From the NCBI RefSeq assembly GCF_003334305.1, contig NZ_QOWS01000030.1: a stretch of 41,498 nucleotides of DNA. One strand, 5' to 3'. Shown here piece after piece: positions 10,021 through 32,480 of the stretch. The translations under genes and the position numbers were made by a program. The notes under the pieces are model-generated. The model had not been told where the DNA came from, made no database searches, and saw only the letters and a program-made list of their open reading frames with translations. Origin of the DNA: Escherichia coli. Lineage in GTDB: Bacteria > Pseudomonadota > Gammaproteobacteria > Enterobacterales > Enterobacteriaceae. The first letter of the stretch is position 1. Each line of letters begins with the position of its first letter.

Positions 10021-12654
10021 TCAGGCAAGCCGGTAACTGAACGTCCGTGACTGGCCGGGTAAAAAAGGCCCCGATAGATTTGAACCTTGATTTTCCTCGG
10101 TGGTAATGTGTTCATCCATCATCGTTTCTGAGCAAGAAATCACCTCGCGACTGAAAGCAACAGTCGCATCACAGGTTGCTGATTCAGCCGGATTAAACAG
10201 CCGTAAAATCACTTCTTGTCGGTCTTCAGCTTTCTTAAGTGCGCTTATCAGGCATCCCACTGGGGGCATTTTCAACAAACTATAACTTTCCGGCACGTTG
10301 AATCCGGCTTTGTTGAGCTTCATCGCATCCCATGGGATTTTGTTGTAACACTGTACTGGAGTCAGCCATGCTCGCGCCTGCTGAGCTACACCAGCGGCGG
10401 TTGGCGTACCGGTATAACTCAATAAACTTAGGCGACAAGAAAGCAGACCACGTAGTTGTGAGTCCGGGACTGGCATTTTAATTCCCGAAGGCCGCCCAGG
10501 CCTTAAAAACAGATCTTCTTTGCCCAGTAAGCCCACGCCACGCAGCAACGTAATGGCAAAGGTTTTCTTCTCTTCACCGATGACTTCAAATTCACGTAGC
10601 CCTTCGCTAAAGACAGCCATGCCGTTACGCCCTTCCTGTAAGGCTGCATAGTTGAGCATATTCCATACCGGAACCGGCGCTTCTTTCCAGCCTTCTTGCT
10701 GCCAGTTGTTCATTGCACTGTCGTTCACGGGGCGCGTTAGCGAACCAAACTGGGTATCTGCCAGAACACTATCGGTGTTAAAAGATGTAGGGATCAGGAC
10801 GCGAAGGCGATGATCGTCAGCCTGGTTATCAAGGTTGATATCCACATCAATACGTCTGCTGTTATGACTCAGAGTGACAACCATCTCCACCCCTACTCTG
10901 CCCGTGGATTGCCGGACGCTTCGTTCCAACAAATTGAGCGGCACCGCCATGTCATAGCGGATAACAGCCCTGCTCTGCCAGGCCTCATGAGTAATCTCGC
11001 ATTGCGGTTTCGCTGTTGCAGAAGTCATTACCCACTCTTCTTTTGCGGGTGAATAGTCATATTCATCACCATCATCAGAGCTTTCTTCAATTTGCAACAC
11101 CCGGTCATAGCGCACACCGCTATCTTTATCTACCAGTTGTAGCGTTCCATCCTCATTGAGCGCAATTTGCCAGAAAGCATTTTCCAGTATCCCTTCAGCG
11201 TCACTTTTTGCCGCAATCACGTTGCCAGGCTGATTCGCTTCGATATAAAGCGTGCGATAGCCCATAGAAGGGACAATCTGGTTGATCTGTATATCAAACT
11301 CCATAAAGGGATCGTAATTACCGTAATGAACTATTTGCCGATCGATTAGGCCTGGATCGATCTCACGGGCATGGCGAATAAAATACGGTACAGGCTGACC
11401 GCGATCGTCTCGTAGATTAAACTGGCTGGCGCGCAGCCGCACAGTGGTGTTAATAACTTCTTCCCGCGGCCAGGGCATCAGGTTAAACAGCACGAGTTTG
11501 TCGGCATCACTCTGTGGCATGTTATCGGCAATTTTGCGCATGTAGAAACGCAGCAGATTATCCGCCATGTCTTCAGCCAGTTCGAAGCGGGCGACAATTT
11601 CGCGATGAACTTTGTCACTGCAACAACAACCGATACTGTCGTGGGCATGATTTTTTAAGATCTCTTTCCACATTTTCTCCAGCAAGCCGTGGTGGTATTC
11701 AAAACCCAACGTCCAGGCCAGCGTTGCCAGCGGTTCCAGCAGATTAACAATCTTATTTTCAATACGTGCGTGGGCAATTTTGATATCCATGCGCGTGGAA
11801 CCGATGGTGCGATGTACGCGCATATATTTGCCATCGATAAATTCACCTTTCAGGGTGGCCAGACTTTCACGCTGCGCTTCGATCTTCTCAAATACCTCTT
11901 CAAAGCGGCTCATCACAAACTTACGTTGAGGGTAGATCTCACGTAGCTTATCCATCACTTCGAAGATATTTTGCTGCAATGGCATCTGGTCATGCCCATT
12001 CGGCAGCAAAATCTCTTTGGTTACAGACGCTTTTTCCAGCACGTCAAAATAACTGTCGAGGCGTTTACGTAATCCGTTTTCGTCGGCAGGTAAGTACTTA
12101 CCGATGGCGTAGCCCAGCGGCAGCACCTGCGCCGTCACTTCGCTACCGTCACTGCTTTGCCACAAAAACTCGGTTTTATCAGTACCGTGGCGCTCCGAAC
12201 ATCCGCGCCAGAACATGGTGCGGGTAATGCCAAATCCATTGTAGATATGCGGCAGTTGCCCGGACATGCCAAAGGAATCTGGTAAATAACCTATTTTCAT
12301 CGGCTCGCCAAACGCGAGGCAGTCACGCATTCCGTACATCAGATTACGGACGATGGATTCCGCAGAAACAATCGTGGTATCGGTCTGGGTATACCAGGGG
12401 CCGATAATCAACTTGCCGGCTTCTACCTGTTTCTTCACGCGGTCTTTGTTTTCCGGTTTCACCGCGAAATAATCTTCGAGGATCGCCGTTTGCCCGTCGA
12501 GTACGTAATATTTGTATTCGTTGTCCTGTTCCAGTCGGCACAGGATCTCTTCCATATTATTGACCAGCAGAATGCGTGACTCTTCGGTGGTGAAATACCA
12601 CTCCCGATCCCAATGCATATGCGGGGTGATGTGAACGCGAGATACCGCTTTCAT
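10021..12654 (-). CDS. mngB: Mannosylglycerate hydrolase (alpha-mannosidase, GH38), 877 aa
   Basis: ORF 10021..12654 minus; [38 protein letters not shown]... (GH38 N-terminal HxHxDxxW-type motif). Confidence 0.93.
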
Positions 12655-14756: not shown

Positions 14757-15479
14757 ATGGGACACAAGCCCTTATACCGGCAGATTGCCGATCGCATTCG
14801 TGAACAAATTGCGCGTGGCGAGCTTAAACCTGGCGATGCGTTACCTACCGAATCGGCATTACAAACAGAGTTTGGCGTCAGCCGGGTTACGGTGCGTCAG
14901 GCTTTGCGCCAGTTAGTCGAGCAACAGATCCTCGAAAGCATTCAGGGCAGCGGGACTTACGTCAAAGAAGAGCGGGTCAATTACGATATTTTTCAGTTAA
15001 CCAGTTTTGATGAAAAACTGTCGGACCGTCACGTCGATACACACAGTGAAGTCCTGATATTTGAAGTGATTCCGGCTGACGATTTTCTTCAGCAACAGCT
15101 ACAAATCACCGCGCAGGATCGTGTGTGGCATGTGAAGCGCGTGCGCTATCGCAAGCAAAAGCCAATGGCGCTGGAAGAAACCTGGATGCCGCTTGCGTTG
15201 TTCCCGGATCTCACCTGGCAGGTCATGGAAAATTCAAAATATCACTTTATTGAAGAAGTGAAGAAAATGGTTATCGATCGTAGCGAACAGGAAATCATTC
15301 CTCTGATGCCAACCGAAGAGATGAGCCGTCTGCTTAATATCAGCCAGACAAAGCCGATTCTTGAAAAAGTATCGCGTGGATATTTAGTTGATGGTCGGGT
15401 GTTTGAATATAGCCGCAACGCTTTTAATACCGATGACTATAAATTTACCCTGATAGCGCAACGAAAATCATCGCGATAA
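14757..15479 (+). CDS. mngR: GntR/HutC-family transcriptional regulator MngR (FarR), 240 aa
   Basis: ORF 14757..15479 plus; MGHKPLYRQIADRIREQIARGELKPGDALPTESALQTEFGVSRVTVRQAL (wHTH GntR N-terminus) plus UTRA effector domain. Confidence 0.93.
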   Translation: MGHKPLYRQIADRIREQIARGELKPGDALPTESALQTEFGVSRVTVRQALRQLVEQQILESIQGSGTYVKEERVNYDIFQLTSFDEKLSDRHVDTHSEVLIFEVIPADDFLQQQLQITAQDRVWHVKRVRYRKQKPMALEETWMPLALFPDLTWQVMENSKYHFIEEVKKMVIDRSEQEIIPLMPTEEMSRLLNISQTKPILEKVSRGYLVDGRVFEYSRNAFNTDDYKFTLIAQRKSSR

Positions 15480-15480
15480 G

Positions 15481-15507
15481 CACAAAAAAGGCCATCATAC
15501 GATGGCC
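15481..15507 (-). terminator. Rho-independent terminator of the sdh-suc operon downstream of sucD
   Basis: Stem GGCCATC(15490..15496) / GATGGCC(15501..15507), 4-nt loop; on the minus strand the hairpin is followed by TTTTTTGTG (plus-strand A-run 15484..15489). Confidence 0.7.
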
Positions 15508-15582
15508 AACCATGTCGAAACCGACAGCCCTTCGCCATTCCTGTAGAGGGAAGCGGCGAGGGCTATTTCTTATTACAGATAT
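15482..15582 (-). ncRNA. sdhX: Probable SdhX (RybD) 3'UTR-derived sRNA locus
   Basis: About 100 nt between the sucD stop (15583) and the terminator hairpin, the reported position of the SdhX sRNA processed from the sdhCDAB-sucABCD transcript. Coordinates are approximate; the 5' processing site cannot be read from sequence. Confidence 0.5.
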
Positions 15583-16452
15583 TTATTTCAGAACAGTTTT
15601 CAGTGCTTCACCGATATCCGCCAGGCTGCGAACGGTTTTCACGCCTGCGGCTTCCAGAGCAGCAAATTTCTCATCCGCAGTCCCTTTCCCACCGGCAATG
15701 ATGGCACCCGCGTGGCCCATACGTTTGCCTTTCGGCGCAGTCACACCAGCGATGTAACCCACAACTGGCTTGGTAACATGCTCTTTGATGTACGCTGCCG
15801 CTTCTTCTTCAGCGCTACCGCCGATCTCACCGATCATTACGATCGCTTCGGTCTGCGGATCTTTTTCGAACATTTCGAGAATGTCGATAAAGTTAGAGCC
15901 AGGGATCGGGTCACCGCCGATACCAACACAGGTCGACTGACCGAAACCGTAATCCGTGGTCTGTTTAACCGCTTCATAGGTCAGTGTACCGGAACGGGAA
16001 ACGATACCCACTTTACCCGGTTTGTGAATGTGACCCGGCTGGATACCGATTTTGCATTCACCCGGAGTGATAACGCCCGGGCAGTTCGGGCCGATCATAC
16101 GAACGCCGGCTTCGTCCAGTTTCACTTTCACAGTCAGCATATCCAGCGTCGGGATGCCTTCAGTGATGGTGATAATCAGTTTGATGCCTGCATCAATAGC
16201 TTCCAGAATGGAGTCTTTGCAGAACGGTGCTGGTACGTAGATAACAGAAGCGGTAGCGCCAGTAGCAGCAACAGCTTCACGCACGGTGTTGAACACCGGC
16301 AGGCCGAGGTGGGTAGTACCGCCTTTACCTGGGGTTACGCCGCCAACCATTTTAGTGCCGTATGCAATGGCCTGTTCTGAGTGGAAAGTCCCCTGGCTAC
16401 CAGTAAAGCCCTGGCAGATAACCTTGGTGTTTTTATCAATTAAAATGGACAT
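15583..16452 (-). CDS. sucD: Succinyl-CoA synthetase alpha subunit, 289 aa
   Basis: ORF 15583..16452 minus; [45 protein letters not shown]...; start overlaps the sucC stop by 1 nt. Confidence 0.97.
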
Positions 16453-17618
16453 TATTTCCCCTCCACTGCGGCAACAACCTGCTGAGCTGCATCCGTCAGA
16501 CCTTTTGCTGCAATAATATTCAGGCCGCTGTCAGCCAGTTTCTTCGCGCCGAGTTCGGCGTTGTTACCTTCCAGACGTACCACGACCGGTACGTTAACAC
16601 CCACTTCTGCTACCGCGCCGATGATACCGTCAGCGATCAGGTCGCAACGAACGATACCGCCGAAGATGTTAACCAGAACGGCTTTCACTTTGTCGTCAGA
16701 GAGGATGATTTTGAACGCTTCGGTTACACGTTCTTTGGTTGCGCCGCCGCCAACGTCAAGGAAGTTAGCCGGTTCGCCGCCGTGCAGTTTAACGATGTCC
16801 ATCGTACCCATCGCCAGACCTGCGCCGTTAACCATACAACCGATGTTACCGTCCAGCGCAACGTAGTTCAGTTCCCACTGTGCAGCCTGTGCTTCACGCG
16901 GATCTTCCTGCGACTGGTCACGCATTTCGCGCAGATCAGGCTGGCGGAACAGTGCGTTGCCGTCAGCGCCCAGTTTGCCGTCGAGGCAAATCAGATCGCC
17001 CTGTTTGGTGATGACCAGCGGGTTGATTTCGATCAACGCCAGGTCGCGCTCCAGGAAAATGGTCGCCAGGCCCATGAAGATTTTGGTGAACTGCTGAACC
17101 AGTTTACCTTCCAGACCCAGTTTGAACGCCAGCTCGCGTCCCTGATACGGCATCGGGCCTGTCAGCGGATCAAGCGCAACTTTATGGATCAGGTGCGGAG
17201 TTTCTTCCGCCACTTTTTCGATTTCCACGCCGCCTTCGGTGGAGGCCATAAAGACCACGCGACGGGAACTACGGTCTACAACGGCACCGAGATACAGCTC
17301 TTTAGCGATATCGGTCGCTGCTTCAACCAGAATCTGGTTAACCGGTTGGCCATTGGCATCTGTTTGATACGTTACCAGACGCTTGCCGAGCCAGTTTTCT
17401 GCAAAAGCACGGATGTCTTCTTTGCTGTTTACAACTTTCACACCGCCCGCTTTACCGCGGCCACCAGCGTGAACCTGACATTTCACTACCCACGGGCCGG
17501 CACCGATTTTTGAAGCGGCTTCTTCTGCTTCGCGCGGAGTAGTACAGGCATAACCCACCGGTGCTGGTAAGCCATAGCGGGCAAAAAGTTGTTTTGCCTG
17601 ATATTCATGTAAGTTCAT
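16452..17618 (-). CDS. sucC: Succinyl-CoA synthetase beta subunit, 388 aa
   Basis: ORF 16452..17618 minus; [60 protein letters not shown]... Confidence 0.97.
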
Positions 17619-17658
17619 GTGTTCTGTCCATCCTTCAGTAATCGTTATCTTTTAAACC

Positions 17659-17689
17659 GTAGACCGACACCCTATCCACGTCGGTCTAC
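17659..17689 (-). other. Stable stem-loop in the sucB-sucC intergenic region (possible mRNA processing or stability element)
   Basis: Perfect 10-bp inverted repeat GTAGACCGAC(17659..17668) / GTCGGTCTAC(17680..17689) with an 11-nt loop; no adjacent U-tract, so not a typical intrinsic terminator. Confidence 0.5.
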
Positions 17690-17711
17690 AGTGCAGGTGA
17701 AGCTTAAACTA

Positions 17712-18929
17712 CTACACGTCCAGCAGCAGACGCGTCGGATCTTCCAGCAACTCTTTGATCGTTACCAGGAAGCCCACGGATTCGCGACCATCGATCAGAC
17801 GGTGATCGTAGGACAGCGCCAGGTACATCATCGGCAGGATCTCAACCTGACCATTCACCGCCATCGGACGATCTTTGATAGCGTGCATACCCAGAATTGC
17901 GCTCTGCGGCGGGTTGATGATCGGCGTAGACATCAGGGAACCGAACACACCACCGTTGGTGATGGTGAAGTTACCACCGGTCAGATCTTCAACGGTCAGC
18001 TTGCCGTCACGGCCTTTGACTGCCAGCTCTTTGATTTTCTTCTCGATGTCTGCCATGCCGAGGGTATCGACATCACGCAGTACCGGTGTCACCAGGCCGC
18101 GCGGCGTAGAAACCGCCATGCTGACGTCGAAATAGTTGTGGTAAACCACGTCATCGCCGTCGATAGACGCGTTCACTTCCGGGTAACGTTTCAGGGCTTC
18201 AACCACCGCTTTCACGTAGAAGGACATAAAGCCCAGACGGATGCCGTGGCGTTTTTCAAACGCTTCACCGTACTGCTTACGCAGATCCATAATCGGCTTC
18301 ATGTTGACTTCGTTGAACGTGGTCAGCATGGCGGTGGAGTTTTTCGCTTCCAGCAGACGCTCTGCCACACGCTTACGCAGGCGAGTCATCGGGACACGTT
18401 TTTCACTACGTGCAGCCAGAGCCGGTTGCGCCGCCGGAGCAGCCGCTGCCGGAGCAGACTCTTTCGCCGGGGCTTTCGCCAGATGTTTTTCCACATCTTC
18501 ACGAGTCAGACGACCACCCACACCGGTGCCTTTAATGGCGCTGGCGTCGAGATTGTGTTCAGCCAGCAGGCGACGGATCGCCGGGCTTAACGCATCGTTG
18601 TTTTGCTCTTCCAGAGATGCCTGCTGGCGTTGCGCCGGAGTGGACGCTTTCTCTTCAGATTTGGCGCTGGTTTCTTTACCGGCGCTGTTGCCTTCACGCA
18701 GGCGACCAAGGATCTGACGAGACGTTACCGTTGTACCTTCATCTTCCAGAACCGCATCCAGAATGCCGTCTGCTGATGCCGGTACTTCCAGTACCACTTT
18801 GTCAGTTTCGATTTCTACCAGCACTTCATCACGTACGACTGCGTCGCCGGGTTTTTTATGCCAGGTTGCGACGGTGGCATCGGCTACGGATTCAGGCAGG
18901 TCAGGGACCAGAATATCTACGCTACTCAT
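17712..18929 (-). CDS. sucB: 2-oxoglutarate dehydrogenase E2 (dihydrolipoyllysine-residue succinyltransferase), 405 aa
   Basis: ORF 17712..18929 minus; [51 protein letters not shown] (lipoyl domain) and catalytic domain with the DHRLIDG motif. Confidence 0.97.
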
Positions 18930-18943
18930 TGTGTATCCTTTAT

Positions 18944-21745
18944 TTATTCGACGTTCAGCGCGTCATTAACCAGATCTTGTTGCTGTTTCTGGTGAACGGA
19001 CATATACCCTACCGCCGGAGAGGCGGAGGCCGGGCGGCCTGCATAACGCAGAGAAGCCCCAAACGGAATCACTTCACGGAAATGATGCTGGCTGCAGTAC
19101 CATGCGCCCTGGTTGAGCGGCTCTTCCTGGCACCAGACAAAATCCTTGACGTGAGCAAACTGCTGCAACACTTCCTGCATCGCTTTATGCGGGAACGGGT
19201 AGAGTTGCTCGATACGCACAATGGCGACATCGTGTTGATTGTTCTTACGACGCTGTTCCAGCAGGTCGTAATAAACCTTACCAGAACACATCACTACGCG
19301 CTTCACGCCCTTCGGATCAAGCTCGTCGATTTCACCGATGGCTGGCAGGAAGGTGCCGTTCGCCAGTTCTTCGAGGCTGGAAACCGCCAGCGGATGACGC
19401 AGCAGGGATTTCGGCGACATCACGACCAGCGGACGACGCATCCCGCGCAGCGCCTGACGACGCAGCATGTGGTAAACCTGTGCCGGGGTAGACGGTACGC
19501 AAACCTGCATGTTTTGCTCAGCACAAAGTTGCAGATAACGTTCCAGACGCGCGGAGGAGTGCTCCGGCCCCTGCCCTTCGTAACCGTGCGGCAGCAACAT
19601 CACCAGACCACACATCCGGCCCCATTTCTGCTCGCCAGAGGAGATGAACTGGTCGATAACCACCTGCGCACCGTTGGCGAAGTCACCGAACTGCGCTTCC
19701 CAGATGGTCAGGGTGCGTGGTTCTGCGGTGGCATAACCGTATTCAAACGCCAGCACTGCTTCTTCAGACAGTACGGAGTCCCAAACACGGAACGCGCCCT
19801 GGCCGTTATGGATGTGTTGCAGCGGCGTGTAAGTGGAACCGTTAGACTGGTTGTGGATCACCGCGTGGCGGTGGAAGAAGGTACCGCGACCGGAGTCTTC
19901 ACCCGACAGGCGAACCGGAATGCCTTCGTCAACCAGCGTGGCGTAAGCGAGGTTTTCCGCGCCGCCCCAGTCGAACAGTTTCTCACCGGCAGCCATCGCC
20001 TGGCGATCGCCATAAATCTTGGCAACGCGAGACTGCATTTCAACCGCTTCCGGCACCGTGCTGATGCGTTTAGCCAGTTCCTGCAGGCGCTTCATCTCAA
20101 CTTTGTTCGGGTACTCTTCGTCCCATTCGTGGTTGAGGTACGGCGACCAGGTGAAAGAGTGCATGTTCATCGGACGCCACTCTGCTACCACGCAATCGCC
20201 AGCATCCAGCGCATCGCGGTACAGGTTAACCATCTCGGTGGCATCTTCCAGCGTCGCCACTTTTTCCTGCTCCAGCTTGTCAGCGTAGATTTTGCGCGGT
20301 GTCGGATGTTTTTTGATTTTCTGATACATCAGCGGCTGGGTTGCGCTCGGCTCGTCGGCTTCGTTGTGGCCGTGACGGCGGTAGCATACCAGGTCGATGA
20401 AGACATCACGTTTAAAGGTGTTACGGAAATCGAGCGCCAGACGGGTCACAAAGGCAACGGCTTCCGGATCGTCCGCGTTAACGTGGAAAATCGGTGCCTG
20501 AACCATCTTGCCGATATCAGTACAGTACGGCGTAGAACGGGCATCCAGCGGATTAGAGGTGGTGAAACCAACCTGGTTGTTGATAACGATACGTACCGTA
20601 CCGCCAACTTCATAACCACGCGCTTTCGACATGTTCAGGGTTTCCTGAACCACGCCCTGTCCGGTCACTGCGGCGTCACCGTGGATGGTAATTGGCAGCA
20701 CTTTGTTGCTGCTCGGCTCATCAAGTCTGTCCAGACGGGCACGAACAGAGCCGATAACGACCGGGCTTACAATCTCAAGGTGAGACGGGTTAAACGCCAG
20801 CGCCAGGTGCACCAGGCCGCCATCGGTCTGGAAGTCAGACGAGAAGCCCATGTGGTATTTCACGTCACCCGTGCCGAGGTGTTCTTTATGTTTACCGGCA
20901 AACTCGTCGAACAAGTCTTGCGGTTTTTTACCCAGCACGTTCACCAACACGTTCAGACGACCACGGTGCGCCATCCCGAGAACCACTTCCCGGGTGCCGC
21001 TGTTGCCAGCGTGGCGGATCATCTCTTTAAGCATCGGGATTAACGCGTCACCGCCTTCCAGCGAGAAGCGTTTTGCGCCAGGGAATTTTGCGCCGAGGTA
21101 ACGTTCAAGGCCTTCAGCGGCGGTCAGTTCGCTTAAGAAGCGTTTTTTCTCTTCGCTATTGAAAGTCGCGCGACCAGACTCGATACGCTGTTGGATCCAG
21201 CGTTTTTCTTCGGTGCTGGTAATGTGCATATACTCGGCACCAATCGGGCCGCAGTAGGTTTGCTTGAGGGCTTCCAGCAGCTCGCCGAGTTTCATGGTTT
21301 CTTTGCCGCTGGCAAATGAACCGACGTTGAAGGTCTCCTGGAAGTCTGCTTCGGTCAGATCGTGGAAAGACGGATCCAGATCGGCCACTTTATCTTGCTG
21401 CCACAGTCCCAGCGGATCGAGATTCGCATGCTGGTGACCACGGAAGCGGTATGCGTTAATGAGCTGCAGGACTTTAACCTGCTTTACATTGGTGTCAGGG
21501 TCGGAGATCGTTGAAGAGTAACGTGAAGCGTCTTTCGCCAGGCGGCGGAAATATTCACGCGTTTGAGAGTGGAATTGATCCGGTTTGACTCCCGTACCAG
21601 GTAACTGCTGGAACGTCGAACGCCAGTTAGCGTCAACCGAGTCAGGATCGGTTAAGAAGTCTTCATAGAGCTGTTCTATCCAGCTCTGGTTTGCGCCAGA
21701 GAGGTAAGAAGAGTCCAACCAGGCTTTCAAAGCGCTGTTCTGCAT
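18944..21745 (-). CDS. sucA: 2-oxoglutarate dehydrogenase E1 component, 933 aa
   Basis: ORF 18944..21745 minus; [50 protein letters not shown]... Confidence 0.97.
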
Positions 21746-21795: not shown

Positions 21796-21933
21796 ACGCA
21801 CAGTTATGTGCGTGCCGGGGTTCACTTGCGAGCTCTTGTCTACGTAGTGGCTCGCGAAGGAACCTTTAAAAACTGTCTTAGTGTCAGGGGCAGTTTTTAA
21901 AGATTTCCTGAATAGCCGGGGGATTTCCCCGGC
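21796..21933 (-). promoter_or_regulatory. Cluster of at least three stem-loops in the sdhB-sucA intergenic region (the region of the reported internal suc promoter)
   Basis: Inverted repeats read from sequence: ACGCACA-gtta-TGTGCGT (21796..21813); CTTTAAAAACTG ... CAGTTTTTAAAG (21864..21902); GCCGGGG-gattt-CCCCGGC (21915..21933); plus a weaker CTTGCGAGC/GCTCGCGAAG pair at ~21824..21859. Confidence 0.5.
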
Positions 21934-27192: not shown

Positions 27193-27226
27193 TTAACCCG
27201 CCGTTCAAATGGCGGGTTAATTTTTA
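27193..27226 (+). terminator. Rho-independent terminator of gltA
   Basis: Stem AACCCGCC(27195..27202) / GGCGGGTT(27211..27218), 8-nt loop, followed by AATTTTTAT. Confidence 0.75.
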
Positions 27227-32445: not shown

Positions 32446-32480
32446 GATGCCCTTTGCAGCCGGAAAGGGCATCTCTTTCA
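32446..32480 (+). terminator. Terminator candidate after ybgO
   Basis: Perfect 10-bp stem GATGCCCTTT(32446..32455) / AAAGGGCATC(32464..32473), 8-nt loop, followed by TCTTTCAG (weak U-tract). Confidence 0.45.

Follow-up and report, generated by a model that had tools for sequence, protein, structure and literature searches.

A perfect stem-loop lies between sucB and sucC in a stretch of Escherichia coli DNA of 41,498 nt (contig NZ_QOWS01000030.1 of assembly GCF_003334305.1; the whole stretch that was analysed is termed the window). This locus raises the question of what kind of element the stem-loop is and whether it sets a 3' end of the mRNA behind sucB. If a protected 3' end is set after sucB, it would help to explain how 2-oxoglutarate dehydrogenase (sucAB) and succinyl-CoA synthetase (sucCD) are made in unequal amounts from one mRNA. 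Otherwise, the hairpin is a routine intergenic element.

Hairpin in the sucB-sucC spacer

The genes, the parts of the hairpin and the surrounding elements are located as follows.

16452-17618, minus strand: sucC (ORF list)
17712-18929, minus strand: sucB (ORF list)
18944-21745, minus strand: sucA (ORF list)
17659-17668, strand as shown: left arm, GTAGACCGAC
17680-17689, strand as shown: right arm, GTCGGTCTAC
17680-17689, minus strand: 5' arm on the mRNA, GUAGACCGAC (sequence)
17669-17679, minus strand: loop on the mRNA, GUGGAUAGGGU; most of the sampled within-species variants lie in this apical region
17659-17668, minus strand: 3' arm on the mRNA, GUCGGUCUAC (sequence)
17656-17692, minus strand: extended helix of 15 bp, ACUGUAGACCGACGU / GUGUCGGUCUACGGU; apical loop of 7 nt, folding energy -21.5 kcal/mol (RNA folding)
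17709-17714, minus strand: tandem UAG UAG stop codons of sucB (sequence, ORF list)
17638-17658, minus strand: A/U-rich single-stranded segment, GGUUUAAAAGAUAACGAUUAC, directly 3' of the hairpin and conserved in Enterobacteriaceae
17628-17636, minus strand: Shine-Dalgarno-like sequence of sucC, GAAGGAUGG, which starts 18 nt upstream of the AUG (17616-17618) and lies outside the hairpin

The coordinates of the sucC and sucB ORFs leave a spacer of 93 nt (17619-17711). In the whole element read from the sequence (17659-17689), an 11-nt loop (17669-17679) is enclosed by a perfect inverted repeat of 10 bp. Because the arms are palindromic, the minus-strand mRNA keeps the same arms and carries the complementary loop. 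The initial annotation had placed a perfect 10-bp stem-loop between sucB and sucC; its arms, at 17659-17668 and 17680-17689, are read directly from the sequence, and the ORF list agrees with the 93-nt spacer and with the assignment of the suc genes. RNA folding gives each of the 10 core pairs a base-pair probability of at least 0.997 and extends the helix to 15 bp, including three G.U pairs. For the whole spacer, the folding energy is -27.1 kcal/mol, which gives a z score of -3.3 relative to 200 dinucleotide shuffles.

The hairpin pattern is found once in the real window and in none of 100 shuffled versions of it. Of perfect inverted repeats with 10 bp or more, the window has ten distinct ones (20 nested hits), as compared with approximately 0.6 hits expected from Markov simulations. 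These results indicate that the repeat is not random, yet it is one of several intergenic hairpins. Further perfect inverted repeats of at least 10 bp are located at 200-233, 9940-9963, 27193-27220, 32446-32473, 32987-33025, 34335-34368, 37679-37712 and 39299-39329; the one at 39299-39329 (CCTGATAAAACGC...GCGTTTTATCAGG) resembles a y REP. A perfect 12-bp inverted repeat, CTTTAAAAACTG...CAGTTTTTAAAG, lies at 21864-21902 in the sdhB-sucA intergenic region, roughly 120-160 nt ahead of the start of sucA; for this intergenic region of K-12, both processing by RNase III and an internal terminator have been described. An Rfam scan of positions 15000-20000 (E <= 10) gives no relevant match.

The stem is followed by GGUUUAAAAG and only three U residues come after the stem. 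An intrinsic terminator was defined as a G+C-rich stem-loop followed by a U-tract with at least five U in eight nucleotides, which the tail of the hairpin lacks. The consensus promoter and terminator scan does not call the hairpin as an intrinsic terminator and finds no promoter-like site in the spacer. Both the tail and the scan bear out the earlier remark that the hairpin has no U-tract. The same scan does call the operon terminator at 15490-15507 on the minus strand, after sucD. This site, past sucD, is a canonical intrinsic terminator, GGCCATCGTATGATGGCC followed by TTTTTT, and its context is identical to that of Term-seq position 765148 of K-12, the strongest 3' end of the region (SdhX sRNA / operon terminator).

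The extended helix starts 19 nt past the first stop codon of sucB and ends 37 nt ahead of the AUG of sucC. Because of these distances and the distance to the Shine-Dalgarno-like sequence, the hairpin is expected to persist while both cistrons are translated and to leave the ribosome-binding site unoccluded. Thus, the spacer contains what a barrier to exonucleases is expected to be, namely a stable stem-loop (-21.5 kcal/mol) that is transcribed and is clear, as judged from the distances, of the ribosomes on the neighbouring cistrons. The A/U-rich segment at 17638-17658 is a candidate entry or trimming zone for RNase E.

Two other elements of the spacer were considered. A small ORF of 14 codons, with a GUG in the loop, was rejected: it lacks a Shine-Dalgarno sequence, and its start codon is hidden within the hairpin and is absent from the long alleles described below. 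A long-range pairing between GCUUC and the sucC Shine-Dalgarno sequence appears in the minimum-free-energy fold, but outside E. coli its 5' partner is not conserved. The sucC leader, GATAACGATTAC(C)TGAAGGATGGA(C/T)AGAAC (17619-17650 of the window), is conserved in Enterobacteriaceae, and the sequence ...ATGGATAGAACATC immediately before the sucC ATG is conserved across Enterobacterales. The tandem amber codons that end sucB are recoded in the engineered RF1-free strain B95.deltaA.

Alleles of the spacer in E. coli and related species

The window DNA is 100% identical to that of many complete E. coli genomes, and the flanks of the hairpin are matched in all 5,426 of the 5,426 genomes. The 31-nt hairpin is found by blastn (E <= 10) in 3,402 of these 5,426 complete genomes (63%), at one place per genome; it is identical in 2,563 of them and differs by one mismatch in 832 and by two in 7. 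An earlier megablast search with a 46-nt query gave 3,131 genomes, which is a lower bound because an exact word of 28 nt was required. The carriers include O157:H7, O55:H7, O111, CFT073, ABU 83972 and Nissle. The short hairpin allele is absent in approximately 37% of the genomes, and K-12 and B strains carry a BIME. K-12 and some other genomes are matched in two pieces, and their alignment gives a spacer of 274 nt for the K-12 type and of 365 nt for the E8 type. In 60 rows spread over all genomes, the spacer exceeds that of the window by 0, 168, 181, 182 or 272 nt.

Five long alleles of E. coli (K-12 type, E8, 14EC033, 4750 and the engineered B95.deltaA) and the allele of E. albertii were read. 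The spacers of the long alleles are 261, 274, 275 or 365 nt long, and both arms are kept in them, also in E. albertii. When the short, K-12 and E8 alleles are aligned, the additional DNA has GTAGACCG and TCGGTCTAC as its exact borders and thus lies within the hairpin of the window. The outer 8 bp of the helix (GTAGACCG...CGGTCTAC) are kept in all five long alleles, K-12 included, and CUGUAGACCGG on the 5' side and UUCGGUCUACGG on the 3' side are kept in all five and in E. albertii. The hairpin of the window is divided accordingly into the following segments.

17682-17689, minus strand: start of the 5' arm, GUAGACCG, common to every BIME allele read and to E. albertii
17668-17681, minus strand: allele-variable core of 14 nt, ACGUGGAUAGGGUG, replaced in the long alleles read by 182-286 nt of BIME-2
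17659-17667, minus strand: part of the 3' arm, UCGGUCUAC, common to all long alleles read

The additional DNA consists of alternating REP units (GTAGGTCGGATAAGGCGC...GCGCCGCATCCGAC and GCCTGATG.GACG...CGTGTCTTATCAGGCCTAC) with short linkers and a repeat unit of 91 bp, and is thus a BIME-2. In the long alleles read, it contains four to six REP units and a degenerate fifth or seventh one. The arms of the hairpin are identical to the outer ends of the two terminal units of these alleles, namely the first REP and the degenerate inverted REP that comes last. In the predicted fold of the K-12 spacer, the same outer helix is formed at a probability of approximately 1.0 and closes the whole BIME. The K-12 sucB-sucC BIME-2 has been named as such and is a documented gyrase site (PMC6379681). 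Because the 14-nt core is replaced by BIME-2 and the arms are shared, the REP/BIME-2 locus is polymorphic and the hairpin represents its REP-free allele. This identity was missed by the initial annotation; the GTAG and CTAC ends of the arms are the signature of a REP.

The hairpin itself is not a REP. It does contain the REP tetranucleotides on the mRNA strand, GTAG at 17686-17689 and CTAC at 17659-17662. However, GTAG and CTAC are not paired with each other in a REP, whereas both are paired inside the helix of the window hairpin. The core of 10 bp is perfect, with no mismatch or bulge, and lacks the internal mismatch of a REP. TnpA-REP, for which GTAG is the recognition tetranucleotide, needs a mismatch in the stem, and perfect palindromes are refractory to it (PMC3333891). 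Only GTAGRYCG and the GGATAGGG/GGATAAGG octamer are shared with the REP consensus of approximately 35 nt. When the whole 41.5-kb window is searched with the 3'-end consensus of y and z inverted REPs, only one hit with two mismatches is obtained (10244-10257), which is at chance level, and no canonical REP is found. A reading of the hairpin as a dispersed repeat was rejected, with a single place per genome in 3,402 genomes and a single occurrence in the window. Alternating REPs and inverted REPs with linkers, which define BIME-2, are absent from the window; the K-12, E8, 14EC033 and 4750 alleles and that of E. albertii have them at this site. From the mismatch, the consensus and the copy number, the hairpin is therefore assigned to a REP-free allele of a REP/BIME site and not to a REP.

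Comparison of the 14-nt core with the interior of the BIME reveals no significant similarity (shuffle p = 0.4-0.8). A simple derivation of the short allele by deletion within the BIME was also tried, and no significant alignment is obtained to the first REP, to the degenerate last REP, or to the K-12, 4750 or E. albertii alleles. The BIME may have been deleted from the short allele or may have entered an older hairpin. The BIME allele of strain 4750 (261 nt) and the E. albertii allele differ from each other at approximately 5 of 261 positions, and the K-12 allele is far more distant from that of 4750. Since a long allele is common to E. albertii and is nearly identical in 4750, the BIME is either old or has been exchanged between species. 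The likeness of these two sequences suggests an old trans-species polymorphism or an interspecies exchange at the spacer.

The variants of the short allele sampled in E. coli are a change of U to G in the loop, a change of G to A that converts the loop-adjacent G.U pair to A-U, and a change of A to G in the stem that converts A-U to G.U. None of them breaks the stem, and they represent few independent events. The conservation of the stem within the species may simply reflect low diversity. A 113-nt fragment that is 97% identical to part of sucC is present on a 76-kb plasmid of E. coli FXCREC043 (NZ_CP195869.1), where it is annotated as an ATP-grasp domain protein.

To place the hairpin among other species, species-representative genomes were scanned for the N-terminus of SucC, which gave 80 loci, 63 of them with sucB directly upstream. 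A local hairpin at least as strong as -15 kcal/mol is found in 97% of the 64 gammaproteobacterial sucB-sucC spacers (these 63 and that of the window), with a median of -20.6 kcal/mol. The median z score of these hairpins, calculated against shuffles, is modest (-2.35). A U-tract (at least five U in eight) follows the hairpin in only 9% of the 64 spacers. The sequences of the hairpins are unrelated between genera. Within Enterobacteriaceae, the flanks ATCACCTG and GATAACGATTAC(C)TGAAGGATGGA(C/T)AGAAC are conserved, and the interior varies by genus and always forms a hairpin.

Citrobacter-like contigs have a GTAG/CTAC hairpin at this site that is analogous to that of E. coli. The 146-nt spacer of Citrobacter youngae contains one inverted REP pair closed by CCTGTAGGCC/GGCCTACAGG, and that of Citrobacter sp. 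FP75 contains a short GTAGG...CCTAC hairpin. In a metagenome scan with the Enterobacteriaceae flanks, eight Citrobacter-like contigs with CCCGTAGGTCTG-loop-CAGRCCTACGGG at this site were found, in which the 5' end of a y REP is followed directly by the 3' half of an inverted y REP, which makes up the loop and the 3' arm. The structure of this Citrobacter-like sequence fits an origin of short alleles as collapsed REP pairs. For Salmonella SL1344, the gene coordinates alone, with the end of sucB at 805180 and the start of sucC at 805322 (PMC5222698), give a spacer of 141 nt, near in size to that of Citrobacter youngae.

The hairpin may be no more than a neutral scar of REP/BIME turnover, either its remnant or its forerunner, made of the GTAG-proximal ends of an inverted REP/iREP pair, which would pair by construction, and having no selected RNA function. 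The GTAG and CTAC ends, the identity of the arms with the ends of the two terminal REP units of the long alleles, and the recognizable junction of a y REP and an inverted y REP in the short Citrobacter allele, with the full pair of Citrobacter youngae at the same site, are all consistent with such an origin, and the copy number of a BIME at one locus is known to vary between strains (PMC3333891). However, a strong hairpin is present in 97% of the spacers across genera, many of them without recognizable GTAG/CTAC ends, the helix is kept in all E. coli and E. albertii alleles read, and a K-12 3' end maps just past the helix. A neutral scar is therefore a possible but rather unlikely explanation.

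Compensatory changes, which had been proposed earlier as a check on the stem, were sought with RNAalifold. The E. coli variants and the Citrobacter-like sequences share a helix of 13 bp, in which 6 of the 13 pairs are changed on both sides with pairing kept. This covariation comes from essentially two lineages, and it could arise automatically if each hairpin descends from an inverted REP pair. It is therefore taken as weak support for selection on pairing.

Transcript 3' ends and the probable role of the hairpin

In K-12, transcript 3' ends of this spacer have been mapped. One of them, at 762981(+), is entered as 'orphan' in the curated Term-seq table of Adams et al. and has the context ...AUAUUCGGUCUACGGUUUAAA^AGAUAACGAU (PMC7815308, Supplementary file 1). 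Its score is 1,569, whereas the operon terminator at 765148 scores 19,842 in that sheet (PMC7815308). A second sheet lists a 3' end at 762937, which is 9 nt past the CUAC of the fourth REP, and a third sheet lists none in the sucB-sucC spacer (PMC7815308). The sheets were taken, by file order, as LB OD 0.4, LB OD 2.0 and M63 glucose. The register was checked on the sdhX terminator, whose U-tract ends at position 51 of the 61-nt string. In this register, 762981 is located 8 nt 3' of CUAC (...CGGUCUAC) and 5 nt 3' of the extended helix. The corresponding position of the window is as follows.

17651, minus strand: homologue of K-12 position 762981, in identical surrounding sequence; putative 3'-end position of the window allele

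The 3' end of K-12 is weak, with approximately 5-8% of the signal of the operon terminator; 762981 is detected in one of the three conditions, and is absent in minimal glucose. We infer that the window allele makes the same 3' end as K-12.

These results suggest that the hairpin, as the REP-free allele of a polymorphic REP/BIME-2 site, probably acts as an exonuclease-stopping hairpin that protects a sucAB-containing 3' end. It would be transcribed within the sdhCDAB-sucABCD mRNA and would fold as a 15-bp stem-loop without a U-tract. Cleavage or termination of the mRNA downstream of it would precede the attack by exonucleases. PNPase and RNase II, which proceed 3'-5', would then be halted a few nucleotides 3' of the stem, as at REPs and at Rho-dependent 3' ends. 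Part of the transcripts would end past sucB as protected sucAB-containing species, and the remainder would read into sucCD. Hairpins without a U-tract define and protect Rho-dependent 3' ends genome-wide (PMC6061677), and REPs such as REP325 act as both a partial terminator and a stabiliser (bioRxiv 10.64898/2026.03.23.713779). The initial annotation had proposed a barrier to 3'-5' exonucleases that sets a differential abundance of the sucAB and sucCD segments. This proposal is plausible in view of the K-12 3' end, 8 nt past the shared arm, and of the wide occurrence of the hairpin; the mapped end belongs to the K-12 allele, and both the blocking of exonucleases as its source and an effect on the sucAB:sucCD ratio are presumed.

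A 3' end located 5-8 nt past the stem fits weak termination equally well as it fits exonuclease trimming. The hairpin and the short GGUUU behind it may thus constitute a transcriptional attenuator, at which some polymerases are stopped past sucB, aided by Rho or not, with the result that sucCD is lowered relative to sucAB. The distance of 5-8 nt is typical of hairpin-dependent termination, and weak intrinsic terminators with Rho as backup may exist according to Dar and Sorek (PMC6061677). However, the stem is followed by only three U residues, the consensus terminator scan makes no call, and the table of Rho-termination regions from bicyclomycin data has no entry for the sucB-sucC spacer (PMC7815308), which makes an attenuator unlikely as the main role. 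We consider that the helix most likely marks or protects a minor sucAB 3' end and/or weakly attenuates read-through into sucCD. No promoter of its own is known for sucCD, the known promoters being located only upstream of sdhC and sucA, and any termination at the hairpin must therefore be weak.

A further reading may also be envisaged, though it is speculative and unlikely. The helix closed by GTAG/CTAC, and not the REPs, would be the selected RNA element that sets the sucAB 3' end, and BIME-2 arrays would be passengers in its loop. The resulting allelic series, with 14 nt in approximately 63% of the genomes and 182-286 nt in the rest, would tune sucAB:sucCD in this central operon of the TCA cycle and add or remove a strong gyrase site there, possibly in a lineage-dependent manner.

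A role at the level of DNA, as a cruciform or as a target of gyrase or of the RAYT protein TnpA-REP, or a role in the translation of sucC, as a structural boundary for the ribosome standby site or for Spot 42 access on the sucC leader, is very unlikely. The K-12 BIME-2 at the same site is cut by gyrase (PMC6379681) and GTAG is the tetranucleotide recognized by TnpA-REP (PMC3333891), but gyrase prefers y-type REPs (PMC6379681), which are absent from the hairpin, TnpA-REP requires a stem mismatch and refuses perfect palindromes (PMC3333891), and the hairpin stops 37-40 nt short of the AUG, with the Shine-Dalgarno sequence outside it.

The least probable role is that of a processing site at which RNase III or another endonuclease cuts in the stem and separates the sucAB and sucCD segments. 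Substrates of RNase III typically span approximately two helical turns, namely about 20 bp or more of nearly continuous double-stranded RNA. The hairpin is double-stranded RNA and the operon is known to be processed by RNase III upstream of sucA, but its helix, 15 bp with three G.U pairs, is shorter than such a substrate, the accessible part of a K-12 rnc RNA-seq study gives one site for the operon, located 5' of sucA, the level of SucB is unchanged in an rnc mutant (PMC9731577), and the mapped K-12 3' end is outside the stem. Because of the short helix, the position of this site and the unaffected SucB, the RNase III site suggested by the initial annotation can hardly be maintained.

Comparison with known systems

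The K-12 sucB-sucC BIME-2 is the nearest relative of the hairpin, with the same locus, the same flanks, the same outer helix (GTAGACCG/CGGTCTAC) and the same position relative to the sucB stop and the sucC start. In the window, by contrast, y and z REP units are lacking, as are the linkers, and a core of 14 nt stands in place of 182-286 nt. The window presumably lacks the gyrase cleavage sites as well, which map to y REPs.

REPs that act as stabilisers or attenuators, such as those of malE-malF and REP325 in yjdMN, are similar to the hairpin in being stable G+C-rich stem-loops without a U-tract between tandem genes of an operon. The malE-malF REP reportedly acts as an intra-operon mRNA stabiliser and attenuator, as is said to have been described by Newbury et al. 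in 1987. The effect expected from such elements favours the upstream cistron, and the K-12 allele has 3' ends just past its stems. In contrast to these REPs, the window hairpin is a single-copy, perfect palindrome that departs from the REP consensus, and its role is a predicted one. The hairpins without a U-tract at Rho-dependent 3' ends resemble it in being stable and in having a 3' end immediately downstream. The window hairpin differs from them in its location inside an operon, with downstream genes to be expressed, and no Rho region is reported in the spacer. The intercistronic decay-terminator hairpin of the puf operon of Rhodobacter capsulatus is said to cause a differential abundance of upstream and downstream segments (attributed to Chen, Beatty, Cohen and Belasco, 1988); the likeness to it is one of mechanism only, as the organism and the sequence are unrelated.

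Thus, the kind of element is already known. What is specific to this locus is that the allele of K-12 is a minority allele and that its BIME is located in the loop of a helix kept in every allele read. If the role proposed here is true, nearly all of the transcript mapping has been done in K-12 with an allele carried by approximately 37% of the genomes, and the two forms offer a natural comparison of what REP arrays add beyond a simple stem-loop. The short hairpin is present in most of the pathogenic and commensal reference strains checked (O157:H7, CFT073 and Nissle).
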